In this document: positions 3,081-53,059 of the stretch, in pieces | Layout: each line of letters opens with the position of its first letter | How positions within the stretch are numbered: the first letter of the stretch is position 1 | DNA from: a virus | Length of the DNA stretch: 64,000 bases | Reading direction: 5' to 3' (one strand) | IMG/VR virus record: IMGVR_UViG_3300012662_000001 | Coordinates: 1-64,000 of that record | The notes under the pieces: model-generated | Seen by the model: only the letters and a program-made list of their open reading frames with translations | Databases searched by the model: none | Told to the model about the DNA's origin: nothing | Made by a program: the position numbers and the translations under genes

Positions 3081-6065
3081 CAAAGTGAAATTGATACTGA
3101 TTTTCCCGGAGAAGACCGAGGAAAAGTCAAGCAGTATATGGAACAGCGGTTCGGAGAGGTTAATGTTTGTTCAGTGGGTACTTACTCCGCCTTGCAGTTG
3201 AGAGCGGCTATCAAGGATATGTCTCGTGTGTATGGTCTGGAGTTTCAGGAAGTGAATGATATGATGAAGCTCTTTGCCGTGGATGATCGCAAACCGGAGG
3301 ATCTCTTTAGGATAGCCTGTGCGCAGCCACGTGTGAAGAAGTTTGTTAAGGAACACCCTGACTTGGTGAATGAAGTGATGTTGATTATGCCAGCACCAAA
3401 GGCACGCTCTGTTCACGCCTGTGCCACTATGATATTTCCAAAGGAGCACGATATGTTTCACTGGACACCTATTCGCAAGCAGAATGGAGAGTATGTGACA
3501 GAGTGGGAGGGTGGTGAGATGGATGGCGCAGGATTCCTAAAGAATGACATTTTGGGTATCAAGCAACTGGATAAGTTTCAGAATATGGTACGTCTTGTCA
3601 AGGAAAATGAGGGTGTTGATGTGGATATCTTCAGTGTGCCACTTGATGATGTGGAGGTGTATCGCTACTTTCAGAACGGCTGGACGGAGGATAATTTTCA
3701 TTTTGGCTCTCGTGGTCTAACAGGCTACTGCAAGGAAATGAAACCAGAGAATATAGAGGACTTGATTGCGGCTATTGCTTTATATCGTCCTGGAGCGATG
3801 GAGAATGGTTTTCACACGGAGTATGTCAAGCGTAAGGAGGGTGCTCCTGTGAGTTACTTTGTGGGTTCTGAGGGGATTCTTTCTAATACTTATGGTATCT
3901 TCTGTATTGCGGAGAATAGTGATGTGCTGACTAAAAGAGGTCTTGTTAAGATTCAGGACATTGTTCCTGGAAGGGATAAAGTAAAGACAGAGGATGGTTC
4001 TTTTCAGACAGTGTATCTTAAGAAGGATAACGGTGTTAGAGGTGTCGTTGAAGTTCGAACGACTTTTGGTCGTTCAGTGCTCTGCACTCCTAATCATAAG
4101 TTTTTAACGAGAGAACGTGGTTGGCAGGAAGCACAGAATTTGCGGCATAATGAGGAAGTTTTGTGCTATTTTGAACAATCCTTAAGAAAGGATAATCTAA
4201 CTGAAAGGGAACGTCTTGAACATTGGTTGTTAGGGTATTTTCTTGCGGAGGGCAGTTGTGGTTCATCTCCATATCTTACTGTTACTAATCAGGAAATTGC
4301 TGAAAAAGTGTCCAGGATTATATTGGAACTTTTCCCATCTATGACAATGAGTGTTAATGTGAAAAAGATTGTTCATAAGTCAGGTCGGATTGGTACGACA
4401 ACACGAGTATATGTAAAACAGAAGGACGGTAACAATGGTTATTTTAATGTGAATTATGAGCCTAATCAGTTTGTTGCTTGGTTGAAAAAGTGGGGTGTTT
4501 GGGGTCAGAACTGTTACACCAAGAGACTTCCTAAGGATTATTCTTTGGATATGATTGTCGGCCTATTGGAGGGGGATGGTTGTATGAAGAATTATACTTT
4601 GCGTCTCTGTAACAAGGAACTTTCTATGGATGTTTATATGGGGTTGCAGTCTTATGGAATTCAGTCTTCATACAGAATTAATAAAAGCGGAATACCTATC
4701 GTAAGTTGGAATGATTTGAATCAGGAGTTCAATCTTCGTTTATTTAGTCATAAGAAGTTAGTGAGACCATCAACGGTGCATTCTGGTTATGGTAGAGTCC
4801 GTTCCATTATTCCTATGGGAGCACGAAGAGTGTATGATTTGAGTGTGGATAATGTTCATAGTTTTGTTGTAAATGGCTGTGTTGTAGCGAATTGCTTCCA
4901 GGAACAAATTATGGAATTGTGTAAACATCTTGGAGGACTTTCACTTGTGGAAGCAGATGACGTGCGAAAGGCGATGGTGAAAAAGAAGTATGAAGCACTT
5001 CATCAGTATCACCCAAGGTTTGTTGAAAATTATGTGACACAGTTTGGTGTGACGAATGAATATGCTGAGAATGCGTGGAGTGCGATTGACAAGGCCTCCT
5101 CCTATTTGTTTAATCGTTCACACGCTGTTGCATACGCTTTGACAGGTTATATCTCACAGTGGATGAAAGTTCACTATCCGATAGAATACTGGAGCGTGGC
5201 GTTTAAGGAAGCGATGACGGAGGACTATCCTCGCTACATTGCTGAGATTAACAAGACAGGTGTTTGCACGGTAAAGCCTGTGGACATCAATCTGTCAGGA
5301 ACAGGCGTGTATATTGACTTTACAGCCAGAACACTCTATTGGTCTGTTACAGGAGTGAAGCAGGTGGCTGAAAAGGCGGCCACACAGATACTCAAGGAGC
5401 GTGATGAGAATGGTAGATACTGGTCTCTGGATGATTTTGTGACACGCCACAAGTGGAAGGGATCAGCGGTGAACACGAGAGTGGTGCAGAACCTTATTCT
5501 CGCAGGGGCGTTTGATGACGTGGAGAACATCACTGATGCCTCTCAGAGGGTGGAACTGTTAATATCCTATCTGGCTTCCACGAAGAACAAGCTGAATGAG
5601 GATGATCCTATCATAGCAGGGTTTGACACTCACAGGAATGACGCTTGGTGGTGGCAACTTATGCAGAAAAAGCTCTCAGGACTTGCGTTCTTTGACTATG
5701 AGAATATCTACGACAAGGTGCGGCAGTTCTTTCCTGAGGACTATGAGTATCACACCTTTGAGGAATGCAGTGACGTTGAATATCGTCCTAACAGAGGATA
5801 TGTCATAGTCGGCGGCTATGTGTCAGCGGTTGATCTGAAGAAGACAAAGAAAGGTGACATTCTATGTCGCATAACACTGGAGAATAATTATGAGTTTCTG
5901 GACTTGGTTGTGTTTCAGACTGAATATGAAAGACTTCAGGAGGAGATTGCTGCAAGCAAGGATAATATCATATTCCTGAATGCAACGCTCTATTATGACG
6001 CACGAAATGACAAAAATGCCTTGAGGGCTGATATGGAGACCGCTATGGTGACATTTAAGTTATAA
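3081..6065 (+). CDS. dnaE: DNA polymerase III alpha subunit (DnaE-type), exon 2 (palm/fingers/OB), includes an intein
   Basis: In-frame QSEIDTDFPGEDR (catalytic Asp pair), GTYSALQLRAAIKDM, RSVHACA, NDILGIK, ALYRPG, TYGIF|CFQEQIMEL, ADDVRKAMVKKK, FNRSHAVAYA. All are DnaE-like blocks. Confidence 0.8.
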   Translation, partial: QSEIDTDFPGEDRGKVKQYMEQRFGEVNVCSVGTYSALQLRAAIKDMSRVYGLEFQEVNDMMKLFAVDDRKPEDLFRIACAQPRVKKFVKEHPDLVNEVMLIMPAPKARSVHACATMIFPKEHDMFHWTPIRKQNGEYVTEWEGGEMDGAGFLKNDILGIKQLDKFQNMVRLVKENEGVDVDIFSVPLDDVEVYRYFQNGWTEDNFHFGSRGLTGYCKEMKPENIEDLIAAIALYRPGAMENGFHTEYVKRKEGAPVSYFVGSEGILSNTYGIFCIAENSDVLTKRGLVKIQDIVPGRDKVKTEDGSFQTVYLKKDNGVRGVVEVRTTFGRSVLCTPNHKFLTRERGWQEAQNLRHNEEVLCYFEQSLRKDNLTERERLEHWLLGYFLAEGSCGSSPYLTVTNQEIAEKVSRIILELFPSMTMSVNVKKIVHKSGRIGTTTRVYVKQKDGNNGYFNVNYEPNQFVAWLKKWGVWGQNCYTKRLPKDYSLDMIVGLLEGDGCMKNYTLRLCNKELSMDVYMGLQSYGIQSSYRINKSGIPIVSWNDLNQEFNLRLFSHKKLVRPSTVHSGYGRVRSIIPMGARRVYDLSVDNVHSFVVNGCVVANCFQEQIMELCKHLGGLSLVEADDVRKAMVKKKYEALHQYHPRFVENYVTQFGVTNEYAENAWSAIDKASSYLFNRSHAVAYALTGYISQWMKVHYPIEYWSVAFKEAMTEDYPRYIAEINKTGVCTVKPVDINLSGTGVYIDFTARTLYWSVTGVKQVAEKAATQILKERDENGRYWSLDDFVTRHKWKGSAVNTRVVQNLILAGAFDDVENITDASQRVELLISYLASTKNKLNEDDPIIAGFDTHRNDAWWWQLMQKKLSGLAFFDYENIYDKVRQFFPEDYEYHTFEECSDVEYRPNRGYVIVGGYVSAVDLKKTKKGDILCRITLENNYEFLDLVVFQTEYERLQEEIAASKDNIIFLNATLYYDARNDKNALRADMETAMVTFKL
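3903..4892 (+). mobile_element. intein with LAGLIDADG homing-endonuclease domain inside DnaE
   Basis: Starts with Cys (CIAENSDVLT). Block B is TPNHKF. Two LAGLIDADG motifs (LLGYFLAEGS, IVGLLEGDGC). Ends ...HSFVVNGCVVAN followed by Cys+1. Excision restores TYGIF-CFQEQIM, equivalent to the DnaE YQEQ(V/I)M block. 330 codons, AT-rich. Confidence 0.85.
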
Positions 6066-22251: not shown

Positions 22252-23865
22252 ATGAACACAAGAATTCTGTTTGGAAAGGACGCAAGGGCGGCTCTGCTTG
22301 CAGGAGCGGAGGAACTCTATTCAGCCGTGGCGTCCACTCTCGGTCCGAGAGGGCACACTGTCGCCATTGATAAGGGGTACGGCATTCCTCACATCACCAA
22401 GGATGGTGTGACGGTGGCTCGTGCCTATGACACTGATGACCCGATGAAGCGAATGGGGGCGACACTGGTGAAGATGGTGGCTGCAAAGACCTGTGATCAG
22501 GCAGGTGATGGAACGACAACGGCCACGATACTCTCCTACGCTATGATGAAGCGTGGTGTGAGCGGTCTGGTAAACATTCAGAACCCACACGAGTATCGTA
22601 GAGGAATGGAGGATGCTCGAGATGAGGCAGCCCATTATATTCAATCCAATGCCGTGAAAATAGAATCTGATGAAATTGATAGAATTAGACAGGTAGCCAA
22701 AGTGTCAGCCAATGGTGACGATATGGTCGCTGATCTTATTACTTCAGCGATAGAAAGCGTCGGCAATGACGGCATTATAACCGTTGAAGAAAGCACCAAG
22801 GGTGATGAATCCACTGTGGAGGTCACCACTGGGTTTCAGTGGGGCAAGGGTATCATCAATCCATACTTTGTCACGGATCCGGAACGAATGGAATGCGTGC
22901 TGGACAGACCGTATGTGCTTATCTGGGGTCAGAACATCAACTATGTGCAGGAGATTCTTGCCGTGGTGCAGACCGTTTATACGGCCAAGAGGTCACTTCT
23001 TATAGTGGCTCCTAATGCTTCCAATGACGTTATAAAGTTTCTTGTAACCAATGTTCAGCAGAACAATGGGCTAAAGGCGTGCTTCGTTAAGGCTCCTGGA
23101 TTTGGTCAGATGCAGAAGGACTTGATGCAGGACTTGGCCGTAAAGGTGGGCGGTAGAATTGTCGGCGAGGAGTACGGCAACGCCATTGAATCATTCGGCA
23201 CGGACTGGCTTGGTGAGGTGGACAGAGCCACTGTTTCAGCGAATAGAACCATTCTCGTGGGCGGTGCTGGAAAGGACGGTGACATCAACGCCCGAATAGA
23301 GTTCATAAAGAACGAGATGGAAGGCAACTCCAACACCTATGACAGAGAGAAGTACAGGGAGCGCATCAGTCGTCTTACAGGCGGTGCGGCCGTCATCTAT
23401 GTGGGTGCGGATAGTGAGGTGGAGATGAAGGAGCGCAAGGACAGAGTGGATGACGCCATTGCGGCCACCAGAGCGGCTCTTGATGAGGGTTATGTTCCTG
23501 GAGGAGGAACTGTGCAGTACAAGATAGCCAAGATTCTGGAAGGATCACTAAAGAGCAATCCAGGATGGAACATTGACTATGTGGAGGGCTATCGTGCCGT
23601 GATTGAAGCTCTAAAGGAACACTTCCATATCCTATGTCAGAACGCAGGTGTGGAGCCTGTTCGTGTTGAGGTTATGATGGACTTGAAGTCCAAGGACTTT
23701 CAGCAGGGGTATAATCCGTTCAAGAACAGAATTGAGGATATGTATAAGGCAGGAGTGATAGATCCAGCCAAGGTCACAAGAACATCTTTGGAGAATGCAG
23801 TGTCAGTGGCTGTTCAGTTTCTTGGTATGTCTTGCGCTATGTCAGGTGAGGAGAAGACTAAATAA
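22252..23865 (+). CDS. groL: GroEL-type chaperonin (Cpn60)
   Basis: LGPRGHTV, AGDGTTTATIL, ITVEESTKG, AAVIYVGADSEVEMKERKDRVDDAIAATRAALDEGYVPGGG, DPAKVTR. Confidence 0.9.
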   Translation: MNTRILFGKDARAALLAGAEELYSAVASTLGPRGHTVAIDKGYGIPHITKDGVTVARAYDTDDPMKRMGATLVKMVAAKTCDQAGDGTTTATILSYAMMKRGVSGLVNIQNPHEYRRGMEDARDEAAHYIQSNAVKIESDEIDRIRQVAKVSANGDDMVADLITSAIESVGNDGIITVEESTKGDESTVEVTTGFQWGKGIINPYFVTDPERMECVLDRPYVLIWGQNINYVQEILAVVQTVYTAKRSLLIVAPNASNDVIKFLVTNVQQNNGLKACFVKAPGFGQMQKDLMQDLAVKVGGRIVGEEYGNAIESFGTDWLGEVDRATVSANRTILVGGAGKDGDINARIEFIKNEMEGNSNTYDREKYRERISRLTGGAAVIYVGADSEVEMKERKDRVDDAIAATRAALDEGYVPGGGTVQYKIAKILEGSLKSNPGWNIDYVEGYRAVIEALKEHFHILCQNAGVEPVRVEVMMDLKSKDFQQGYNPFKNRIEDMYKAGVIDPAKVTRTSLENAVSVAVQFLGMSCAMSGEEKTK

Positions 23866-32705: not shown

Positions 32706-33242
32706 ATGAACTTCTATGAAGCGGCAATACAGGCGGTCTGCACCGCCTATGAGATAACGCCCGAGACGCTGAAAGGCGAATGTCGGGATGAACGAATAGT
32801 GGAAGCGAGAAAGTGGTACTGTCTGCTGACCTCTCCACGACCTCTGGTGCAGTCCGGACGTCACATAAATCGTGATCACGCCACCGTACTGCATCATCGC
32901 AGGGAGATGCGTGACACTCTGGGGCTTTATTCCATCTACAGAGAGCGATGGCTTGTTATGAAGAAGCTCTTTGACAGAATATTGATGGAGGGGCGACTGA
33001 ATGAGTGTTCTGTGGGTGTGGTTGAATATAGGAGTCAGTGGAAGTCCTATCGGGATCTGCTGTCAGCCGCCGAGAGAGCGCGACGTAAACTGGAGGAGAT
33101 GTCCACGTCCGTCGCAGGTGAGCCGTGCGTGGTGTGTGAGAACGGTGACGGTGAGTTCCACGTGATAAGGGTTAAGAACAGACTTGCCGAGCCGCTGCAT
33201 CTGGAGTGTATGCTGAACATTATAAAAGAAAGAAACAAGTAA
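32706..33242 (+). CDS. protein with DnaA domain IV-like HTH (Bac_DnaA_C-like) N-terminal domain
   Basis: RDERIVEARKWYCLLTS...SGRHINRDHATVLHHRREM resembles the DnaA C-terminal DNA-binding signature (...R..a.yl...G..f.rDHtTV.ha). Confidence 0.5.
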   Translation: MNFYEAAIQAVCTAYEITPETLKGECRDERIVEARKWYCLLTSPRPLVQSGRHINRDHATVLHHRREMRDTLGLYSIYRERWLVMKKLFDRILMEGRLNECSVGVVEYRSQWKSYRDLLSAAERARRKLEEMSTSVAGEPCVVCENGDGEFHVIRVKNRLAEPLHLECMLNIIKERNK

Positions 33243-33645: not shown

Positions 33646-33715
33646 AGCGGAGCAGGGTGCATAATCAGATCTTATCACCCTCGATAAGCGAAACTTATGG
33701 TCTGTTATAATTGGT

Positions 33716-33762
33716 AGGCATACAGAGAATCCGGAGAATGATCCTGACCCTGTATGCCTTTT
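33716..33762 (+). terminator. 10-bp stem hairpin followed by a T-tract
   Basis: AGGCATACAG...CTGTATGCCT then TTT. Confidence 0.5.
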
Positions 33763-34422
33763 CGTGTGAACTCCGAAGGATGTTCACACCTGGAACGTTC
33801 GAACAGAACGTTCCCCAACTTCCTGATACTCAGGACACCCTCCTATTTCTATGATAAGCATTTCTTATAATTGATGATAATCCTTCCTTATATTGAGCAT
33901 ACAGACAGGGGGCTGTATGGAGGGGTCGGCTTGGGTGGGCACAGAAGGGATTATAGGGGTTGGAGGTGGTCGGTTTAGATGGAGGGGTTCTGGGTATTTA
34001 GAGCCGTGCGGAAACCTCCGTTCCTAAATCCCTTTCGCTCACGTCAGGGTTGTTTTCGAGAGAAATTGAACGATGATAGGGATGTCTGAGGTGGGTGATA
34101 TCCTATACAGTGGTGCAGTAAGGCAAACTCCGGGAATTTCGGTACTTAACGGAAGCTCATCGGGACAGGCGGATGCCGAGATTTTGTGAAAAATAGGGTG
34201 TGAAAATGACGTGAAAAACATAATCGACTGATAATGAGTGACCAATTTCAAATGTAAAGTGGGTGATAACAAAATCCCAGAGGGTATTAAAACGAAATTA
34301 AGGTAAAATCCCGAAATTCCGTAAAATGTAAAGCGGTTTACAGACGTCATTCCTATAACTCCCCTCAGGTATCCCGAGTTATGATGATTAAAATTGTAAG
34401 TTGGTGAAATTTCGTGGAAATT

Positions 34423-34455
34423 TCATTGGATATTCCAGAATATATGCCAACTTTG
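34423..34455 (+). promoter_or_regulatory. promoter/operator cassette P4
   Basis: TCATTGGATATTCCAGAA, then CAACTTTG (19-nt spacer). Confidence 0.55.
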
Positions 34456-34513
34456 CCCCATAACTACTAAAATCACCGACATCGGTGATAATGTTTGCTT
34501 ATAATAGAAACTT

Positions 34514-38530: not shown

Positions 38531-38633
38531 TATCTACTTCCAAAACGATACATATAACATACAGAATTATGAATCCTATATGCTATATGGCGTGATTTCA
38601 AATGTAATTAGGATGCCCCGATTTGGGTGGTTT

Positions 38634-39503
38634 TTATGCTTTCTTTTCATACTTAGCTCGCTCACGCTCAATGATTTCATCTAAAGATGGTTCCTCCTCT
38701 TCAACAGGCGGCTCACTTTCACATTCCTCCATAGAAGCGACACCATCTTCAGGATTCAGTACGGATCCATTATCAGTCACTGTAAATCGTATGGCAGTAA
38801 TGGGATCAAGACCTTTCCATTCGGCCTTGGACTTTATCTTTTCAAAGGTGAATTGAAGTCTGGTTCCGACTTCTTCAAATTCTCTGGCAGCCATTTCAAG
38901 ATACTTGTTCACGAATGCCCACGAATCAAGACTATCACTCGCTCCAACCCATTTCCTGATGTCCTCTATTCTGGCAGTCCAGGTCTCTCTCTTCATATTG
39001 CTGGATATGTAGAGATATGTCATCATAGCCTGTGGACGTGTAAGACGAAGAAATGACTGCACACAGAAGGACACGTATCCTACTTTCTTGGTGAAGTTCA
39101 ACAGCCAGCACAGACTTCGCGGAACGATTCCAACACCATACTGACCATTTGGATAGGTAATGATGTCATAGAATAGAGGGTAGGTGTGAAGAGCACCATT
39201 CTCATCCACTTCATCTATGATGTCCACTTTTTTCATTTTTAGAAGTGTTGCCTTGATACTATGTTTACCTGAAATAACATACTTCGCTGGAATAGGAATT
39301 TCCAGTTCCGCCTTGTCATTCAGTGGAAAATACTTCTGCAATGTTGCTCTGTCAGCTTTTTCCCAGTCAATGTCCTCCGTCTTGGGAATATACTCCTGAA
39401 GAGCTTCTACCACTACCGCCCAACATCTTTTCTGTCGGGCATACTCATAACGAGCCACACTTATTGCGGCCTGTTTTGTCGTTCTTACTACTTGTTTCTT
39501 CAT
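38634..39503 (-). CDS. putative replication initiator (Rep, plasmid iteron-type, winged-helix), paralog 1
   Basis: Paralogous to 51212..52003 (RTTKQAAISVARYEYARQKRCWAVVVEALQEYIP versus RTTKRATRDVTKYSSARQKRCWAVVVEALQEFIP). Iterons lie immediately upstream of its promoter. FCVQSFLRLTRPQAMMTYLYISSN resembles the Rep_3 pattern L.s.Ys.rlY. ATG at 39503 is downstream of the -7 box. Confidence 0.5.
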   Translation of the reverse strand: MKKQVVRTTKQAAISVARYEYARQKRCWAVVVEALQEYIPKTEDIDWEKADRATLQKYFPLNDKAELEIPIPAKYVISGKHSIKATLLKMKKVDIIDEVDENGALHTYPLFYDIITYPNGQYGVGIVPRSLCWLLNFTKKVGYVSFCVQSFLRLTRPQAMMTYLYISSNMKRETWTARIEDIRKWVGASDSLDSWAFVNKYLEMAAREFEEVGTRLQFTFEKIKSKAEWKGLDPITAIRFTVTDNGSVLNPEDGVASMEECESEPPVEEEEPSLDEIIERERAKYEKKA

Positions 39504-39527
39504 AATGTATAGAAATTTGTTTACACG

Positions 39528-39535
39528 CAAAAGTA
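39528..39535 (-). promoter_or_regulatory. -7 box TACTTTTG for rep paralog 1
   Basis: TAnnTTTG on the minus strand, about 25 nt upstream of ATG 39503. Confidence 0.45.
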
Positions 39536-39591
39536 ATCACTACATAGTAAATTTCAAAATTAGAATTCGTACATTAAAATCTCCATCTTAA

Positions 39592-39634
39592 ATGTAATAC
39601 ACCTCGTTTCTGTATGTAATACACCTCGTTTCTG
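39592..39634. repeat. two direct 21-bp iterons (22-bp period), ATGTAATACACCTCGTTTCTG
   Basis: copies at 39592-39612 and 39614-39634, identical, separated by 1 nt; core TACACCTC is shared with the second iteron array. Confidence 0.9.
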
Positions 39635-39666
39635 AAGTAATTAAGATTTGTGAAATCCCGACTACA

Positions 39667-39693
39667 TCGGGAGGGGGTCGGGAAAATTCGGGA
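39667..39693. repeat. three helically phased TCGGGA repeats
   Basis: TCGGGA at 39667, 39678 and 39688 (11 and 10 nt apart). Confidence 0.7.
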
Positions 39694-39821
39694 CTTTCCA
39701 GGGTCTTAAATAGTAGGAAATAGTATAAGAAAAAGAGAAATAGGGCTCCTGTCGGAGCTTCTATCTTTTAGAGAATCTCATACGAAATTTATGAAATTTC
39801 ATAAAGAAATCCTATATCATA

Positions 39822-39882: not shown

Positions 39883-40233
39883 ATGAAACAGATTGACACT
39901 ATGAACATCACGACCCCTAAATGGCACATAGAAGAGCTTACGGGCTATAAGCCTGAGACGACGTTCTGGCAGGATTTCTCCGTCGTTGAGAAGATGAACG
40001 GCCTTAATGGCGTTCAGGAGACGTTCAACAGAGCGTTCAAGGAGTGGTCAGACCACTATAGATACCTCACCGAGCTTGTTCTCGTGCTCAACTGGAAGTG
40101 CTGGGACTGGTATGATCAGGGTGATGAGGATATGTCTATGCTCTACCAGAACCTCTTCTATCAGGCAAGGGACTATGCTCTGGACAACCTCAAGGACGAA
40201 GAACTTTCCTATTTCGTGAAAACTACGGATTAG
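39883..40233 (+). CDS. hypothetical protein
   Basis: 116-codon ORF behind P7. Confidence 0.5.
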   Translation: MKQIDTMNITTPKWHIEELTGYKPETTFWQDFSVVEKMNGLNGVQETFNRAFKEWSDHYRYLTELVLVLNWKCWDWYDQGDEDMSMLYQNLFYQARDYALDNLKDEELSYFVKTTD

Positions 40234-40295: not shown

Positions 40296-41786
40296 ATGGG
40301 ATTCACACCGAGCAAGTATCAGCAGCGCATCTATGATTTCATAGAGCAGGGCACAGGCAACGCAGTCATCAACGCAGTCGCAGGAAGCGGCAAGACAACA
40401 ACCCTAATCAGTCTCCTGGAACGTGTTTCGGCCACGAGCAGGGTTCTCTTTCTGGCCTTTAATAAGAGCATCGTGGAGGAACTGAAGATAAAGACCTCCC
40501 GATTCAGCAATGTGGACGTTAGAACACTGCACTCACTCGGATGCTCGGCTCTCCGTAAGCAGCTCTCCATAGGAGACATCAACAGCAGCAAGTATCGTCA
40601 ATACGTCACGGAGCAGCTGAAGTCAGGAGCATACGCCCCCACACGAGAGCTGTCTCTGAAGGAGAAGTCTGAGTATAAGAGCAACGTGCTGGATCTCATC
40701 GACCTCGCACGTGTCAATCTGTGTCAGTCCGCTCAGGAGGTTGCCGCTGTGGCCGAGAAGCACGGTCTGTTCCTGCACGACAACGAGATACAGCTCGCCC
40801 TGAATGCAATTGTCTGGGGTCGCAGCGAAAGCGGCCTTTCCACCATCGACTTCACGGATATGATATATCTTCCTTGCTACTTCAGCGAGGTGCGGTTCTT
40901 CAAGTATGACCTCGTCCTAATAGACGAGTGTCAGGACTTGAATGCGGCTCAGAGAACTTTATTCCTCAAGACCATTAAGCGCAACGGACGCTTCGTGGCC
41001 GTGGGGGATCCTCGTCAGGCGATATACGGCTTCGCTGGAGCGGACGTGGAGTCATTCAACCTCCTCAAGTCCCTCCCTAACACGGTGGAGCTTCCGCTGT
41101 CAGTGTGCTATCGCTGTGACAGGGAGATTATCAGGAAAGCCCAGACGGAGGTTCCACAGATAGAGTGGCGTGAGAACGCTCCTGACGGCACGGTGAACAG
41201 TGACGCCAAAATTGCCGACGTCAAGGACGGTGATATGGTGCTGTGTCGTCTGTCAGCACCGCTCGTGGCTCTCTGCATCAGGTGGATAGGTGATGGCGTC
41301 AAGGCCTACATCAAGGGTCGTGACATCGGCACCAACCTCGTCAATATGCTCCAGAAGACCAAGCGTGTCCGCATCAAGGACGCTCTCAATGTTCTCCGCA
41401 AGGAATTGGCTCGTGTTCAGGGGGAGATACAGAGGACGTGCGGTATGTCTCCTGAGGAGGCCGTCCAGCACACCGCCTATGTCCTCTATGAGGATAAGAT
41501 TAAGGCGATAGAGGTCATCGCCGAGGGACTGACCAAGGTTGAGGAGGTGTGTGATCGCATCAACGCAATCTTCAGTGACGAGAGCAAGCAGGGCATCTGT
41601 CTTTCGACCGTTCACAAGTCCAAGGGACTGGAGAGTGACAGAGTGTTCATCGTCTGTCCTGACAAGTTCCTACTGAAGCGGTCAATGCGAATTCCGTGGA
41701 TGGCGGAGCAGGAGCACAACCTCGTCTATGTGGCCTACACAAGAGCGAAGCACTATCTCGGCTTCGTGACGGACTTTAAGATATAA
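40296..41786 (+). CDS. UvrD/PcrA-like SF1 helicase (paralog 2)
   Basis: VAGSGKTTT, IDECQDLN, VGDPRQAIYGFAGA, TVHKSKGLESDRVF, VAYTRAKHYL. Confidence 0.85.
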   Translation: MGFTPSKYQQRIYDFIEQGTGNAVINAVAGSGKTTTLISLLERVSATSRVLFLAFNKSIVEELKIKTSRFSNVDVRTLHSLGCSALRKQLSIGDINSSKYRQYVTEQLKSGAYAPTRELSLKEKSEYKSNVLDLIDLARVNLCQSAQEVAAVAEKHGLFLHDNEIQLALNAIVWGRSESGLSTIDFTDMIYLPCYFSEVRFFKYDLVLIDECQDLNAAQRTLFLKTIKRNGRFVAVGDPRQAIYGFAGADVESFNLLKSLPNTVELPLSVCYRCDREIIRKAQTEVPQIEWRENAPDGTVNSDAKIADVKDGDMVLCRLSAPLVALCIRWIGDGVKAYIKGRDIGTNLVNMLQKTKRVRIKDALNVLRKELARVQGEIQRTCGMSPEEAVQHTAYVLYEDKIKAIEVIAEGLTKVEEVCDRINAIFSDESKQGICLSTVHKSKGLESDRVFIVCPDKFLLKRSMRIPWMAEQEHNLVYVAYTRAKHYLGFVTDFKI

Positions 41787-47118: not shown

Positions 47119-47574
47119 CTACACAATCGTGAAGTCAAGATGGACGTCGTCCACATCAATGAAGCCCTGTTCCACAAGCAGAGTTGCTATTGTACAGCCG
47201 TCCGTGAACCGCACGTCAATGACTGGATACAAATTAGTGACAACGGTGAACGAGCCAACCTTTTCTCTGTGCAGATTGTCCCATACAGGCACGACAGGCG
47301 GCCTTCGCTCTCGTGTGCGCACGCCGAACGTGCCGCCATCCTTGAGAATCGTTCTTGGCTGAACCAGAACTGTCTCCAGAGACCTGATGTACTTGCGCTT
47401 CAGCAGACAGAATGCCGTTCTACAGACGTCTCTGTTCAGTGTGATGTAGTCAGCGGACACGTGAAACTCCTCACGCACTCTATTACGAAAGTAGTTCGTG
47501 TCCTCCTTCAGCATATCGTCAAAGTCCATACGAAGCAGGTTCAAAAGCCGCTCCTCTACTTTAGCATTACCCAC
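47119..47574 (-). CDS. hypothetical protein (last gene of the minus-strand island)
   Basis: 151-codon ORF overlapping the peptidase gene by 19 nt. Confidence 0.5.
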   Translation of the reverse strand: MGNAKVEERLLNLLRMDFDDMLKEDTNYFRNRVREEFHVSADYITLNRDVCRTAFCLLKRKYIRSLETVLVQPRTILKDGGTFGVRTRERRPPVVPVWDNLHREKVGSFTVVTNLYPVIDVRFTDGCTIATLLVEQGFIDVDDVHLDFTIV

Positions 47575-48152
47575 GATTCAATGATTTTATCAAAGTCACT
47601 TATAGGAAGACAGCCGTATCCATACGACCCCCAATCCAGACCCCACGTGTTCTTAAAGGTAAGTTCATCCTCACTGAACGCAGTCACCGTGACAGCGTGA
47701 TAACCCACAGGGCGACCCTCTCCAAGCCAGAACTGATTCGTTGCATTGTAGACAGGCAGAGCGATGAGAATCGGACCGCACGACACAAGAGCCGACTTCA
47801 TAGCCATAACGGACGGAATTCGAGCGTATAGAGAGACAATGCCGTTCTTCCGAAGTATTTCCATACCCTCCCGAGGTGTCATTCCCTCAACGGCCTTATT
47901 CTGTCTTCTGTCGTACACCCATCGTCTGTCTATGGGACACGTGTCACGGCTCCACTTCTCTCTGTCATACCTGACCATCTCATATAGGCACTGAGACACG
48001 CAGCTTCCATCAGCACCCTGATTGATGACGTCATTCCTAACATCAGCTCCAAAGAGTTTTGGAGTGGCTGTTGACAGAATCTGAACATATTCCACGTCCT
48101 TTGAACTTGCTCCTGACGGCTCGCAGCCGCATCTAATGTTCTTCAGTATCAT
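47556..48152 (-). CDS. papain-like cysteine peptidase (C1 family)
   Basis: VINQGADGSCVSQC (Gln oxyanion plus catalytic Cys), GYHAVTVTAF (His), KNTWGLDWGSYGYG (Asn-x-Trp-Gly). Confidence 0.7.
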   Translation of the reverse strand: MILKNIRCGCEPSGASSKDVEYVQILSTATPKLFGADVRNDVINQGADGSCVSQCLYEMVRYDREKWSRDTCPIDRRWVYDRRQNKAVEGMTPREGMEILRKNGIVSLYARIPSVMAMKSALVSCGPILIALPVYNATNQFWLGEGRPVGYHAVTVTAFSEDELTFKNTWGLDWGSYGYGCLPISDFDKIIESWVMLK

Positions 48153-48468
48153 AGTAGATTGAAATTATCAGCCATATCAGTGAATCCGTGCAGACGCAGA
48201 ACGTGCTGAAGCTCGTGCACAAACTCGACTTTTATGTTTCCAGACCAAAAACAATTCTTGTTTGAATCATAGTCCAGAATGAAGTCTGGATCCTCTTTAT
48301 CACCCATAGAATAGGCCGCCCATCCTTGCTTCCAGCCGTCTCGCAGAAGCCGACTTCAATCTCTTCGTGTCAATCTTCAAAAGTTTCATCACAAAACGAC
48401 ATTCTTCTTGGTTTATTGCTAAAGATAACCTCCTCTCTGTGCTTCCAGTTTACCGCTACCCACGCCAT
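48149..48468 (-). pseudogene. disrupted HExxH metallopeptidase-like gene, or alternatively two short genes of 32 and 52 aa
   Basis: The 3' part (48149-48307) encodes MGDKEDPDFILDYDSNKNCFWSGNIKVEFVHELQHVLRLHGFTDMADNFNLL and ends in an ATGA overlap with the peptidase start. The 5' part (48370-48468) ends at an in-frame TGA and is in a different frame. Confidence 0.35.
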
Positions 48469-48469
48469 A

Positions 48470-48769
48470 CTACTTCCTTCTAAATCTAACGATTGATTTT
48501 TCATTCATTAGTTCCAAAACAGAAATGGTGTATGTTTTACGTCTAAATCTTACTTCATTGTTCACCATTGTCATAGTTGTGGAATCACTTGCTGTGAGCA
48601 CGGCTCTATCCGTCCACATATCATAGGGAAGCAGAATGAAACCGTTGGACGTTGTTAGACTGTCAATTGTCCTCTGTGGGGTGTAGGTGCGTACCTCCAG
48701 ATACTGAACTCCGGAGCCACAGCCTACAAGCAACATTGCAGTCATAGTAATTATCATTAATCGTTTCAT
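48470..48769 (-). CDS. lipoprotein
   Basis: MKRLMIITMTAMLLVGCGSG, a signal peptide plus lipobox Cys. Confidence 0.6.
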   Translation of the reverse strand: MKRLMIITMTAMLLVGCGSGVQYLEVRTYTPQRTIDSLTTSNGFILLPYDMWTDRAVLTASDSTTMTMVNNEVRFRRKTYTISVLELMNEKSIVRFRRK

Positions 48770-49281
48770 AAGTCGTATTCCTTTGCTATTTTAACGGATT
48801 CCTCCTTGGTCATCGGGCGAACGTGATCCCAGCCCAAGTCATCAAGCAAACCCTGTGTTATGGGATAGTTCACGTGAACGTTGCCGTCCAAAGTGCAGTA
48901 GCATCTATGCTCATCATCACGGAACAGCACCACGTCCGGATAATTCTGTCTCCAGAATATAGGGTCGGAGAACGCCACCATAACGTCACTCCACTCCGTT
49001 TCCAGACCGTGCGGCCTGTCAACATTAGGTTGAACGGACATTATTGACCGAAATTCACTCTCTGTGAGACGTCTTGCAGGTGCTTGCAGTGAACTGGACT
49101 GTTGCTGTTCCAGAAGTCGCTGTAACTCGGTGTTCTTGATCGTAAGCTCCTCAATCAGAGCGTTGGCGTTGTCAAGCTCCTTCTGTAGATCCTTGACCTC
49201 ACGTTCCTTGAAATACATCTTTCTTTCAAGGCGGTCTATCTCCGCCTTGAAAGTTTGCATATTTTGTTCTATCACTGACAT
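48766..49281 (-). CDS. hypothetical coiled-coil protein
   Basis: 171-codon ORF; N-terminal heptad-rich region. Confidence 0.55.
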   Translation of the reverse strand: MSVIEQNMQTFKAEIDRLERKMYFKEREVKDLQKELDNANALIEELTIKNTELQRLLEQQQSSSLQAPARRLTESEFRSIMSVQPNVDRPHGLETEWSDVMVAFSDPIFWRQNYPDVVLFRDDEHRCYCTLDGNVHVNYPITQGLLDDLGWDHVRPMTKEESVKIAKEYDL

Positions 49282-49283
49282 TG

Positions 49284-49856
49284 TTAGTCCTTTAATGCAG
49301 TGTCCTGATTTATCTCCCCGATACCGAACTCCTTATAGTCTCGACCAATGAAGACGATGTAGATTCTTGAAGCATAAGGCTTGTCCCAGAACTGATAATT
49401 GTATCTAAATGTATGCTGATGTTCTGTAAGATACATAATCTCTTCTCGAGGATTGCCATCACTATGATAGTTATAGACTTCACATTCCTTTTCCAGTATC
49501 TTACAGTATTCCTCTATTGCCTGTTGTCTGTTGGAACTTACACCGTCTTCCTTGAATAAAGGGAGTGTCTTTATCATTCGAGTGTCACTCCAGATAATAT
49601 TCTTGCTGTTGGCCGCAAGCATAACTTCCCCAATGGATCTCAATCCAGCATCACTGCATCTACCAAAGTTGATATAGACCTGATTATAGCCGACTACTTC
49701 ATAGGAAACATTTCCCTTGCGAAGCTCTGAAAGCAGAACTGTGAGATTACCACCGACGTGCATTTCCTCGATGGAGAAGAAATCAGCGGCATAGACTGAA
49801 ATCGAAAGACAAAATGCTGCAATGACAGCAGCGATAATTGTAATAAATCTTTTCAT
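49284..49856 (-). CDS. secreted hypothetical protein
   Basis: MKRFITIIAAVIAAFCLSISVYA signal peptide. Confidence 0.55.
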   Translation of the reverse strand: MKRFITIIAAVIAAFCLSISVYAADFFSIEEMHVGGNLTVLLSELRKGNVSYEVVGYNQVYINFGRCSDAGLRSIGEVMLAANSKNIIWSDTRMIKTLPLFKEDGVSSNRQQAIEEYCKILEKECEVYNYHSDGNPREEIMYLTEHQHTFRYNYQFWDKPYASRIYIVFIGRDYKEFGIGEINQDTALKD

Positions 49857-49869
49857 AATACGAAATTGT

Positions 49870-50823
49870 CTATAGTTGTGAAAATATGTGTTTCAGTAGA
49901 ATGCCAACGAAGTTCACGTCCCAGCCGTTGCCAGCTCTGTTCCAGAGTTGATTGGGTGTCAGTCCGGCATAGTCAAGTTCACCGTCTCTAAACCCCATAA
50001 ATCTGAATCGTTCATCAGCGGACATACGTCTGACAATTTCTCTTCCGTCACGTGGCGGCTCAACCACATAGAAAACGTTGTGTTCCTCCAGTATGGTTCC
50101 AGAGAGACCGTCCGTGCGAACCTTGCGATTGTAGAGGTCGAGATTGGCGGCTTCAGTGACCTGAAGCTGATTGCCGAGCCTGTACTTCTCTTTGATGTAC
50201 TGTATACGCTTATCACTAAGATACAGTGATGGGTCTGGGTGCTCGTCAAGAAGATCCTTGAAGCGCAGACTAGAAGGACACTTCGATGGAACAATACTGA
50301 ACCCCTCCGGAAGACCTCCAAGCCGTGCGAATATCCAGACACGTTCCCTGTTCTGCGGTATGCCGTAGTCCTTGCTGTTCATAAGGCCGTAGGCGATATC
50401 ACCATAGCCAAGCTCCTTGAATGCGTCTTTGATAAGGTTAAATGTCTCTTCAAACTTCCTGGATAGGAAGCCCTTGACATTCTCCAGAAGAACATACTTC
50501 GGCTTCTTAACGGAGCACACATAGATGATGTCAGCGAAAAGTGTGCCACGACCATAGCGGTCTCTTTCTCCTTCCTGATCACCTATGAGGCTGAACGGCT
50601 GACACGGAAAGCCGCCTGTGAACAGGTCAAAGTCAGGCAGCTCCTCTGGATTCAACTTGGTGATGTCACCGTAGTTCCTGATGTCAGGGAAGTTAGCGGC
50701 CAAAAGTTTGTTGGCATCCTTGTTGATGTCGGACTGACCCACTACCTTAAACGGTATTCCGGAGCGTCTTAGACCGAATGACGCTCCACCGTATCCTGCG
50801 AATGTTTCAAATACTCGTAGCAT
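49870..50823 (-). CDS. dcm: DNA (cytosine-5)-methyltransferase (second copy, different family member)
   Basis: FETFAGYGGASFG (I), GGFPCQPFS (IV), ENVKG (VI), QNRERVW (VIII), GNGWDV (X). Confidence 0.9.
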   Translation of the reverse strand: MLRVFETFAGYGGASFGLRRSGIPFKVVGQSDINKDANKLLAANFPDIRNYGDITKLNPEELPDFDLFTGGFPCQPFSLIGDQEGERDRYGRGTLFADIIYVCSVKKPKYVLLENVKGFLSRKFEETFNLIKDAFKELGYGDIAYGLMNSKDYGIPQNRERVWIFARLGGLPEGFSIVPSKCPSSLRFKDLLDEHPDPSLYLSDKRIQYIKEKYRLGNQLQVTEAANLDLYNRKVRTDGLSGTILEEHNVFYVVEPPRDGREIVRRMSADERFRFMGFRDGELDYAGLTPNQLWNRAGNGWDVNFVGILLKHIFSQL

Positions 50824-50825
50824 AA

Positions 50826-51098
50826 TTATCTGTAGTTTTGGATTTTCTCGAAAAAGACATTAATGGCTTCCAGAATGGCCTGAAGATCCAGACCGCTGAA
50901 CTCTGACGGCTCATATTCATTACCCCAGATGTCGGCCACGTTGATCCAACCGTTCCCCTTGCGAATCACTGACTTAATCTGTGCGAAGTCACCGTTAACA
51001 GTTGCACAGTCAAGTGGGTGTGAAAAGAAAAGTTCCGTGTTAAGAGGAAGAGTGGACTTGATGAATGACTTAAAGTCAGAAACTGAAAAACGTGCCAT
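50826..51098 (-). CDS. hypothetical protein
   Basis: ATG at 51098 is the first start downstream of the minus-strand promoter cassette. Confidence 0.4.
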   Translation of the reverse strand: MARFSVSDFKSFIKSTLPLNTELFFSHPLDCATVNGDFAQIKSVIRKGNGWINVADIWGNEYEPSEFSGLDLQAILEAINVFFEKIQNYR

Positions 51099-51153
51099 AA
51101 TGCAAAGCAAAATAAAAACCAACAAACAAAGGCAACCAACCTGATTGCAAGTG

Positions 51154-51186
51154 CAAAGGTAGTCATCTTTCTTGGAAATCCAAGGA
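51154..51186 (-). promoter_or_regulatory. promoter/operator cassette P13 on the minus strand
   Basis: minus strand reads TCCTTGGATTTCCAAGAAA, 19 nt, then TACCTTTG. Confidence 0.55.
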
Positions 51187-51211
51187 TTTTATCAAGAATT
51201 TTCTAAAAAAT

Positions 51212-52003
51212 CTATTCGTCCAAAGATGGGTTTTTATTACTCATACAGCCGTTATCTGTAACCTTAAATCTTATGCCAATAACACGAGCCCTTTTCTTGG
51301 CAATCACCTTTTTAAGAATATATTCATACTCGAATGTAAGCCTACATCCTCTATCATCAATCTCCTTTTTACATTCCTTAATATAGTCCGTAACAAAGCG
51401 ATTAGTGTCTATCTGTTCTGGACAGTCCAGCCGCTTGCGAAGTTCCTGCAAGTCCGCATCCCAAACTCCAGCACCATATTTAGGATGCTTGCGGTTAAGG
51501 TTTTCTGACAAATAAAGGTACAAATTCATAGATGTAGGCCGTTGAAGAGCCATAAAAGATTGAACACAAAAAGAAGCATAACCTGTTTTCTTGGAAAAGT
51601 CCAACAACCATCTAAGAGAACGTGGTGGAATTCCCACCCAATATCTTCCATCCTTATTTAGAAGAGTGTAGAATAGAGGAAATGTAGCCTTTCTACCTTG
51701 TTCATCCACTTCATCTATGACGTTAATCTGCGTCATCTTTTCAAGTAGAGATCTTACACTGCCATTATGAGACATTACATATTTAGGTTCGATCTCTACT
51801 TCAAATTCAGAAAGGCTGTTTAGTGGAAAAATTTGTTTTAACCTTTCTGTGTCAAGAGTTTTCCAGTCCACTTCTTCATTTCCTGGAATAAATTCCTGCA
51901 AGGCTTCCACTACAACAGCCCAACAGCGTTTCTGTCGAGCAGAACTGTATTTTGTCACATCTCTTGTTGCACGTTTCGTTGTGCGTAAAATTCTTTTGCT
52001 CAT
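51212..52003 (-). CDS. putative replication initiator (Rep), paralog 2
   Basis: Paralog of 38634..39503 along its whole length; iteron array directly upstream. ATG at 52003 is downstream of the -7 box. Confidence 0.5.
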   Translation of the reverse strand: MSKRILRTTKRATRDVTKYSSARQKRCWAVVVEALQEFIPGNEEVDWKTLDTERLKQIFPLNSLSEFEVEIEPKYVMSHNGSVRSLLEKMTQINVIDEVDEQGRKATFPLFYTLLNKDGRYWVGIPPRSLRWLLDFSKKTGYASFCVQSFMALQRPTSMNLYLYLSENLNRKHPKYGAGVWDADLQELRKRLDCPEQIDTNRFVTDYIKECKKEIDDRGCRLTFEYEYILKKVIAKKRARVIGIRFKVTDNGCMSNKNPSLDE

Positions 52004-52023
52004 TTCGTTTGTAATTTGATGCA

Positions 52024-52031
52024 CAAATATA
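52024..52031 (-). promoter_or_regulatory. -7 box TATATTTG for rep paralog 2
   Basis: TAnnTTTG on the minus strand, 20 nt upstream of ATG 52003. Confidence 0.45.
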
Positions 52032-52067
52032 CAAATTATTTTCATAAACTATAATCCGTTCGTCTGT

Positions 52068-52146
52068 GGGGGGTTTTACACCTCTATTTGGGGGGTTTTA
52101 CACCTCTATTTGGGGGGTTTTACACCTCTATTTGGGGGGTTTTACA
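52068..52146. repeat. 3.6 tandem 22-bp iterons, GGGGGGTTTTACACCTCTATTT
   Basis: perfect copies at 52068-52089, 52090-52111 and 52112-52133; partial fourth copy at 52134-52146. Confidence 0.95.
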
Positions 52147-52943
52147 TTTCTGTAAAATTCTGTAAATGAAATAGTTATCGGGAAAAGAGGCCTCCTGTAA
52201 TAGTAGGGGTAATAGATATTGGGTAATAGTATGATTGTTTATTGATAGTATTACTCCTAAAGTCGTAATACATATCACAATCATACTATTACCTGAAATA
52301 GAAGGGAAATTAAGAAAAGGGAACCGAAACGTCACATCTGAAAATGGAGGGGCTTCGAAAGGGGACTCCTCCCTTACGGTCGGAGGTCTTGTCTTCCCCT
52401 TTCTACGCCCAGGAGAGGGTCGACAGAGCGACCCTGTTTCCTTATAGGAGAATCCTGTATGAAATGCCGTTATACAAACAGTCGTGTCAAGGCCGCAAAG
52501 AATTCAACATTCTTCCCTTCACACGCTTGAGAACGGATAGCATAGATGGGCAGTGCAGTTCCCTATGAAAGTCGTTTATGGAGCAGACATAAAAAGACAC
52601 ATAGCGAAAAGACGGTTGGTTCGATTCCACCTCCGTGGCCTAATTATTTCGGCCTTGTGCTGTAACGTGTTTTGTATTTGATTTGTGATTAGGTGAATTT
52701 GTCAGTTTTTAGACGATTTAGGCGATGTTTGATGTTGGTTCAGTGTAGTTGTCAGGTTTGTGATTAGTTTGTTCCTATATTGCGTAGAATTTTAGTTTGG
52801 ATATCATATTTACGAAAAATTGAGTTTTATCAGTAGTTTTAGAGTTTACAGAATTTTTCTTTTTCGTGTCATTATGCAGGTCGTCCACCGTCTGGGAAGT
52901 AAGGTTCTCCACGGTGGGCATTTTTATGAAAAATCGTGAAAAG

Positions 52944-52977
52944 TTCATTGGAAATTTCAGAAAGGCCACTATATTTG
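52944..52977 (+). promoter_or_regulatory. promoter/operator cassette P11 (a second TATATTTG lies at 53025-53032)
   Basis: TTCATTGGAAATTTCAGAAA, 19 nt, then TATATTTG. Confidence 0.5.
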
Positions 52978-53059
52978 TAGTGTGATAAGACAGAGTGATA
53001 GTTCTTTTAATAGGCTTGTTCTGCCTATATTTGTATCACGAAATTTTAATTCTTTAGAT

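Follow-up and report, generated by a model that had tools for sequence, protein, structure and literature searches.

The segment from 38.5 to 39.8 kb of the viral DNA analysed here, a stretch of 64,000 nucleotides (the window; positions 1 to 64,000 of IMG/VR record IMGVR_UViG_3300012662_000001), is likely to be an iteron-type replication origin together with its own initiator gene, rep1, arranged in the style of a theta plasmid and lodged in a phage genome. This assignment draws on sequence comparison and on a predicted protein structure. The window is part of a myovirus-like, uncultured gut phage of about 100 kb, the host of which probably belongs to the Bacteroidota. Direct repeats at a spacing of two helical turns stand just upstream of the rep1 promoter, and this layout is kept both in relatives and in a second, paralogous module of the same genome. 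An earlier note on this DNA, made from the sequence alone, had proposed a plasmid-style Rep/iteron module at this place; the proposal is supported by the profile and fold of the protein, by the 21-22-bp repeats of its relatives and by the paralogous module, and the gene and all of the upstream repeats that it described are present where it placed them, each beyond chance expectation. The module is a new, very divergent instance of the known Rep_3/iteron type in an uncultured phage, and moderate interest attaches to its accessory elements, which are conserved, to the presence of a paralogous second module and to the shuffling of domains described below. Module 1 comprises the following features.

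38634-39503, minus strand: rep1, encoding a divergent Rep_3-family (RepE/π-like) initiator of 289 residues, N-terminus MKKQVV
39528-39558, minus strand: rep1 promoter of the Bacteroidota type, with the -7 box TACTTTTG at 39528-39535 and the -33 TTTG at 39555-39558
39592-39656, minus strand: rep1 iteron array, with exact copies at 39592-39612 and 39614-39634 and a degenerate unit at 39635-39656
39653-39693, no strand assigned: G+C-rich spacer with four TCGGGA/TCCCGA boxes, one of them inverted
39705-39744, no strand assigned: A+T-rich DNA containing (G)AAATAG three times (CTATTT when read on the rep strand), a candidate DNA-unwinding element
39743-39760, no strand assigned: G+C-rich hairpin with T-rich tails on both strands, resembling a bidirectional terminator, at the far edge of the origin

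The Rep1 protein

On the strength of the Pfam matches of its family, a profile-profile alignment and structural matches to RepE and π, Rep1 is assigned as a highly divergent homologue of the Rep_3 (RepE/π) initiators, with a predicted tandem winged-helix structure. A family-specific N-terminal region of about 90 residues, in which an RQKRCWA motif is invariant across the family, is followed by the two winged-helix domains (WH1 and WH2); residues 253-272 form an acidic linker that is disordered, and a helix lies at the C-terminus. Translation is placed at the ATG rather than at a TTG upstream (39530), because the former start is conserved among the 21 homologues recovered by database search, all of which are metagenomic and without assigned names, and several of which lie on contigs of 92-106 kb.

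Against the Pfam WH2 family Rep3_C (PF21205; gathering cut-off 21.1) Rep1 reaches 17.9 bits, and it does not match the WH1 family Rep3_N (PF01051) at E<=1. Within its family, Rep3_C is matched by 14 of 22 members at E<=0.1 (best E 7.5e-6) and Rep3_N, weakly, by 6 of 22 at the same limit (best E 1.2e-4). A profile search of 1.84 billion representative proteins returned a narrow family (26 matches at E<=1e-10) and, beyond it, a long tail consisting mostly of proteins of 300-450 residues. When 10 of these matches were put to Pfam, most of the near and the distant ones matched Rep3_N and Rep3_C above or near the thresholds, and the distant members P0025, P0030 and P0036 passed Rep3_N at 33-39 bits. 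Furthermore, comparison by hhalign of the Rep1 family alignment (A1) with canonical Rep_3 proteins gave a probability of 99.3% (E 2.5e-20) over residues 91-243, the target being 15 proteins taken from the tail just mentioned, of which the four that were checked are canonical Rep_3. Searches of the INPHARED phage collection with Rep1, at the DNA and the protein level, gave nothing useful, and plasmid records gave only weak matches, to Enterococcus rep genes (23% identity, E 7e-3).

The AlphaFold (AF2) model of Rep1 (predicted local distance difference test score 82, predicted template-modelling score 0.80) shows the tandem winged helices that the earlier note had suggested looking for. In a Foldseek search of the PDB with this model, RepE54, the RepE dimer and π account for all of the top 46 chains, the majority of which have iteron DNA bound, and the best matches are iteron-bound RepE54 and π. 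These matches have a probability of 1.0, E values of 2e-8 to 6e-6, approximately 255 aligned columns and a target template-modelling (TM) score of 0.60-0.69; the first match after the RepE/π chains reaches only E 0.33. The same fold is found in proteins of uncultured phages in BFVD (E 2.5e-17 to 1e-8, TM up to 0.83), so that the principle of a Rep_3-like fold in a phage, seen there in a few metagenomic proteins, is not new.

Promoter and iterons of module 1

The -7 box described in the earlier note is borne out at 39528-39535, where the plus-strand sequence CAAAAGTA reads as TACTTTTG, or TAnnTTTG, on the gene strand, and the TTTG at 39555-39558 lies 19 nt upstream of it; this definition of the motif is one that we take to be established for Bacteroides promoters. 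A TAnnTTTG-like box is also found 20-30 nt ahead of the ATG in most of the Rep relatives. A scan for sigma-70 promoters was uninformative, because promoters in the Bacteroidota are of another type.

The two exact iterons are 21 nt long (ATGTAATACACCTCGTTTCTG; the unit reads ACAGAAACGAGGTGTATTACAT in the rep orientation) and recur, as had been claimed, with a period of 22. The 21-mer has no further match in the window at up to three mismatches, and none of 100 shuffled sequences produced a match. According to Tandem Repeats Finder the array runs on to 39641 (2.3 copies, score 84) and comes second in the window, the best being the corresponding array of module 2, so that each of the two best tandem arrays in 64 kb lies just upstream of the promoter of one Rep paralogue. 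Two blocks of the rep1 iteron, AAACGA-N4-TATTA, are common to the iterons of contig L007, the Rep protein of which is 80% identical.

As regards the promoter, the earlier description has to be corrected. The iterons were said to overlap the promoter of the initiator, but they begin 34 nt upstream of the -33 TTTG and do not overlap the core promoter, and the autoregulation read from that overlap therefore does not follow for module 1. The only inverted repeat in the rep1 promoter region is a 9-nt A+T-rich pair (39570-39578 with 39588-39596). Clear inverted iterons are found between array and promoter in the relatives L005 and L015.

Accessory elements of the origin

Beyond the iterons, the G+C-rich spacer carries TCGGGA at 39667, 39678 and 39688, that is, at the spacings of 11 and 10 nt given in the earlier note for the interval 39667-39693, and an inverted TCCCGA at 39656. 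Four such boxes within 45 nt is a density that no other part of the window exceeds and that did not arise once in 300 simulations under a first-order Markov model. In an alignment of four origins, the box closest to the iterons (TCGGGATTT on the rep strand) does not vary. The inverted box and the first direct box can form a hairpin of 6 bp, so that the CCCGA/TCGGG hairpin of the earlier note is indeed present; as a conserved structure it was rejected, since its stem is mismatched in L007 and the inverted partner is missing in L003 and L005.

The repeats of AATAGTA type that had been reported from 39708 onwards are likewise found there, in the form AAATAG(TA) at 39708, 39718 and 39738, and again their density, three in 45 nt, is the highest in the window and did not come up in any of 300 simulations. 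Within the intergenic region, stability is lowest in the 30-mer at 39705-39734, with a free energy of -29.8 kcal/mol. Because this value is beyond the 99th percentile of the window (-31.5), the CTATTT (AAATAG) stretch is the best candidate for an unwinding element. CTATTT repeats were present in all of the relatives examined (L003, L005, L007, L009, L011, L012 and L015), down to a Rep identity of 33%. The stem of the terminal hairpin varies among relatives yet stays paired (GCTCC/GGAGC, GCCAC/GTGGC, GCCCC/GGGGC). In the four aligned close relatives the order of elements is invariant: ATCTCTAAAAG, the hairpin, three to five CTATTT repeats, the TCGGGATTT box, the iterons, the TAnnTTTG promoter and rep.

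A second, paralogous module

A second module of the same layout lies 12 kb from the first. Its features are given here, followed by a lone iteron-type site that lies next to rep1.

51212-52003, minus strand: rep2, a Rep_3-family paralogue, 46% identical to rep1 (BLASTP E 1e-83)
52068-52155, minus strand: rep2 iterons, a 22-bp unit in three exact copies and one degenerate copy, AAAACCCCCCAAATAGAGGTGT in the rep orientation
52169-52300, no strand assigned: A+T-rich DNA bearing one TCGGGA box (52178) and repeats of the AATAGTA/AATAGA type, the counterpart of 39653-39744
38536-38557, plus strand: lone iteron-type site ACTTCCAAAACGATACATATAA, inverted, 77 nt downstream of the rep1 stop codon

Rep2 reaches 23.9 bits against Rep3_C, over the cut-off of 21.1, and is without the acidic tail and C-terminal helix of Rep1. 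Its iteron array is the best scoring in the window (52067-52146, period 22, 3.6 copies, score 160). The rep1 and rep2 iterons have the core GAGGTGTA in common; all five occurrences of TACACCTC in the window fall inside the two arrays, and both iteron types therefore share a core. The 30-mer at 52224-52253 is the second least stable of the module 2 intergenic region.

Module 2 heads a 5-kb minus-strand cassette (47119-52045), in which a C5 cytosine methylase is encoded at 49870-50823. The adjoining interval 52300-52980 is G+C-rich and without an open reading frame of 110 or more residues, and has a T-loop-like sequence near 52616-52640; no transfer RNA (tRNA) and no Rfam family was detected anywhere in the window, and this sequence is therefore not a recognisable tRNA.

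The lone site at 38536-38557 agrees with the iterons of relatives at 20 of 22 positions (L007) and 21 of 22 (L001), and its pattern, AAACGA-N4-TATWA, occurs three times in the whole window where 0.01 would be expected. A degenerate iteron copy is found in L007 at the matching place. A further site downstream of rep1, at 38590-38612, resembles the iteron of the L003 type (ACATTTGAAATCACGC). Both sites may serve in control or may be left over from an exchange of modules.

Iterons and domain shuffling in related phages

All of the relatives with readable upstream sequence have three to five direct repeats just ahead of the promoter, with a unit of 22 bp (21 bp in L018). The iteron sequences themselves differ from relative to relative and are largely unrelated.

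L007 iteron: ACTTCCAAAACGATACCTATTA
L003 iteron: ATTGCAAATCACGCTCTATTAC
L005 iteron: CGGAACATCCACAATCACGCTG
L011 iteron: GTCAAATAGTTCTCAAATGGGG
L012 iteron: GGTAAAAAACCTCATAAATCGG
L009 iteron: AAAAACCACACTACCGAGGGTG

The Rep family is a mosaic in which WH1 and WH2 halves have been recombined between lineages (P0009, P0013, P0015, P0016, P0006 and Rep2 in alignment A1). P0016 shares 94% identity with P0009 in WH1 but only 33% in WH2, a domain in which it is 75% identical to Rep2; its iteron, AAAACCCCCCAAATCACGCTGT, combines a Rep2-type half (AAAACCCCCCAAAT) with a P0009-type half (CACGCTG). As read from these sequences, this natural domain swap supports an arrangement in which each of the two domains would recognise one part of the repeat.

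The position of the module also varies. It lies between the sigma factor and LPD29 genes in L003, L005, L011 and L015, beside the portal block in L012 and in module 2 of the window, and between the LPD29 block and a UvrD-like helicase gene in module 1. With at least three different positions in related phages, the module is therefore mobile. Close relatives such as L007 and L016 show one Rep match per contig.

The interval 33646-34500, at the place where relatives have their Rep module, was considered as a 'ghost origin' on account of a few repeats and a TTCGGGATTT box, and was rejected because it has no nucleotide similarity to the origins of the relatives. It is without an open reading frame of 110 or more residues and carries a 23-bp repeat in two copies.

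Points against the origin assignment

Several observations weigh against reading 38.5-39.8 kb as an iteron origin. Rep1 itself falls under the Pfam thresholds, and by sequence it has no match in PHROGs, NCBIfam or the PDB, the last also when searched by profile. Module 1 has just two full iterons, a low number for an origin. Approximately 70 bp, with the G+C-rich spacer among them, separate the candidate unwinding element from the iterons, and the position of this element is uncertain because A+T-rich DNA on the promoter side has almost the same low stability. No DnaA box (TTATCCACA, at most one mismatch) was found in 39.5-39.9 kb or in 52.0-53.0 kb, and over the window the count of TTATCCACA is at chance level; DnaA boxes are common in plasmid origins but not universal. 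A replicative helicase and a primase were not identified in the window. Lastly, Rep identity and iteron similarity were not significantly correlated across ten loci (Mantel r=0.20, 567 of 5000 permutations), and the one informative case for recognition of the repeat by two domains is the clean chimera P0016.

The two-copy count, however, may be an underestimate caused by collapse of the array during assembly. Seven related contigs (L001, L008, L010, L013, L014, L018 and L019) end within the iteron array, among them two of genome length (99 kb and 108 kb) and one with a Rep protein 99% identical. These ends most likely reflect the breaking of short-read assemblies at a tandem repeat, and iteron copy numbers taken from such assemblies are therefore unreliable.

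Phage gene content and alternative readings

The gene content, seen within 64 kb of approximately 100 kb, is in keeping with what has been published on 'Gratiaviridae', a candidate family of Bacteroides phages (PMC8008677), and the Bacteroidota-type promoters agree with a host of that kind. The portal protein is 34% identical to those of the Bacteroides phages DAC/SJC and of a Chryseobacterium phage. The replication genes of the window include those for DnaE, helicases of superfamilies 1 and 2 (SF1 and SF2), RecA, RNase H, SbcCD and an NAD-dependent ligase. No other initiator was recognised in the window among the Pfam matches listed, which cover the larger open reading frames (44 further ones together with those scanned singly), and ParA, ParB, resolvase, integrase, toxin-antitoxin and repressor families are equally missing from these matches; the integrase result is as the earlier note had stated.

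That note had left a choice between a phage-plasmid and a Rep-dependent phage origin. As a phage-plasmid, the genome would use one module for low-copy plasmid maintenance in a carrier or lysogen-like state and the other module, or another origin, for lytic growth, as with oriR and oriL of P1. A Rep_3 gene plus iterons is the textbook form of a low-copy plasmid replicon, the genome has two paralogous modules that differ in their iterons, and an integrase is missing from the matches listed; the inverted iteron-type site downstream of rep1 moreover recalls the copy-control iterons of F and P1, and an analogous proposal has been made for crAssphage with its two RepL genes (PMC10983915). The missing partition, resolution, addiction and repressor families speak against such a state, as do the gene content, which marks a large phage equipped with a replisome of its own, the single Rep match per contig in L007 and L016, and the lack of Rep or portal relatives in 185,579 GTDB species-representative bacterial and archaeal genomes, although this last negative is weak evidence because the search was pattern-based. 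A Rep-dependent phage origin thus fits better than a phage-plasmid, given the phage's own replisome, the lack of partition, integrase and other maintenance families among the matches listed and the lack of bacterial-genome relatives, and the phage-plasmid interpretation is considered unlikely.

It has also been considered that the two modules could be independent origins with paralogous Rep_3 proteins, one serving a low-copy, plasmid-like carrier state and the other lytic amplification, and that, jointly with this, the swapping of WH1/WH2 domains and of iteron halves could create new incompatibility groups among co-circulating phages; this combination is speculative, and we would not expect it to hold.

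The mobility of the module raises a further alternative, namely that it is a selfish or competitive Rep-iteron cassette rather than an essential origin, which may over-replicate its carrier or hinder co-infecting relatives through iteron incompatibility or titration. Its presence at three or more genomic positions in related phages, the shuffling of WH1 and WH2 between lineages and the orphan iteron-like sites of other specificities, beside rep1 (38536-38557 and 38590-38612) and in L011 and L005, would all suit such a cassette. Mobility is, however, compatible with an essential origin role, no alternative initiator was recognised among the matches listed, and, because every fetched contig was found via its Rep gene, the related contigs are silent on whether the module is dispensable; the selfish cassette is regarded as improbable. 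That Rep1 is solely a transcription regulator and the repeats its operator is very improbable: Rep_3 proteins do double as autorepressors and the repeats adjoin a divergent promoter region, but the repeats stand upstream of the core promoter without overlapping it, a repressor would have no need of direct repeats with a 22-bp period, of an A+T-rich block of repeats or of an origin-like layout that is conserved, and we know of no Rep_3 member that acts solely as a regulator.

Among the neighbouring genes, 39883-40233, divergent from rep1, encodes a protein of 116 residues without a family match and is followed by a UvrD/PcrA-like SF1 helicase gene at 40296-41786. A protein of 178 residues (32706-33242) has the helix-turn-helix of DnaA domain IV (Bac_DnaA_C, 39.5 bits) and might bind a conserved origin box. 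In the intervals 460-2118, 2155-3009 and 3138-6065, DnaE (polymerase III alpha) is split into two open reading frames, between which lies one of 284 residues without assigned function, and the second part of DnaE contains an intein with a LAGLIDADG domain. A GroEL-like chaperonin is encoded at 22252-23865, and the window also encodes a ferritin, a BACON domain, a NUDIX protein, an extracytoplasmic function (ECF) sigma factor and a second C5 methylase.

Proposed mechanism

For an iteron origin with its own initiator, the following course of events may be proposed. Each 22-bp repeat would be occupied by one Rep1 monomer, with its WH1 and WH2 domains in successive major grooves; the conserved blocks AAACGA and TATTA are separated by 4 bp. 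Together, the bound monomers would bend the DNA out of shape and open the nearby A+T-rich CTATTT stretch (39705-39744), whereupon Rep could recruit a replicative helicase, of the host or of the phage, before the phage DnaE polymerase takes over. The conserved TCGGGATTT box is probably the binding site of an accessory factor, and transcription may be kept out of the origin by the conserved hairpin. The inverted iteron-type site beyond the rep1 stop codon may have a part in control, through looping or titration, comparable to that of incC in F. Rep2 with its own iterons would constitute a second origin of different specificity.

Significance

The analysis provides a concrete prediction of origin and initiator for large uncultured gut phages resembling the candidate family 'Gratiaviridae', the describing paper of which mentions neither an initiator nor an origin (PMC8008677). 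It extends initiators of the RepE/π type into virulent-looking Bacteroidota phages, in which they are too divergent for Pfam, PHROGs and NCBIfam. The natural set of Rep/iteron pairs, including one domain-swap chimera, offers material on how WH1 and WH2 would read the halves of an iteron; the compact Rep-plus-iteron cassette of about 1.3 kb could be tried as a new vector replicon for Bacteroidales; and the presence of two paralogous modules in one genome makes the phage-plasmid question directly testable.

Comparison with known systems

Within phages, the BFVD proteins A0A8S5VL36, A0A8S5VMZ0 and A0A6J5MGL1 ('COG5527 plasmid replication initiation') share the fold of Rep1 but are at most 22% identical to it, and none of them is characterised or comes from a cultured phage. 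Among plasmids, RepE (mini-F ori2), π (R6K) and RepA (pPS10, pSC101) are homologous WH1-WH2 proteins, and their theta replicons likewise have direct repeats at two helical turns, a rep gene adjoining the iterons and an A+T-rich repeat block alongside. The extra inverted iteron-type site past rep1 recalls the incC iterons flanking repE in F, and the inverted iterons that these plasmids have near the promoter are present here in the relatives L005 and L015. In contrast, the identity of RepE and π to Rep1 in structural alignments is just 14-17%, and Rep1 differs from the plasmid proteins in its family-specific N-terminal region of about 90 residues (with RQKRCWA), its acidic tail and its C-terminal helix. 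Unlike the plasmid origins, that of the phage has no DnaA boxes and possesses the conserved TCGGGATTT box and hairpin, and the carrier of the module is not a plasmid but a phage of about 100 kb that has a DnaE replisome of its own.

Prototypic crAssphage, a gut Bacteroidales phage of about 100 kb, has two diverged RepL genes, and two origins have been proposed for it (PMC10983915). The likeness lies in two diverged initiator genes of plasmid type in a gut phage of approximately this size; the differences are that the crAssphage proteins are RepL (PF01719) rather than Rep_3, that the phage lineages are unrelated, and that no iterons are described in that work (PMC10983915).

P1 (RepA/oriR and incA; lytic oriL/RepL) and the SSU5 group also have an iteron-binding initiator in a phage genome, and with these phage-plasmids the present genome has in common two replication modules and the lack of an integrase (here among the window matches listed). 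P1 differs in having partition and addiction functions and in occurring as a plasmid in isolates, neither of which was seen here (in the window and the GTDB genomes, respectively), and in that the two modules of the present genome are paralogues of one family.

In lambda (O/oriλ) and SPP1 (G38P with oriL and oriR), a phage origin-binding protein acts at a short array of direct repeats beside an A+T-rich stretch, the iterons of lambda lying inside the O gene and the two origins of SPP1 being served by a single initiator. The protein folds of O and G38P are unrelated to that of Rep1, but the arrangement of a phage origin binder with direct repeats next to an A+T-rich stretch is alike and, in SPP1, so is the possession of two origins.

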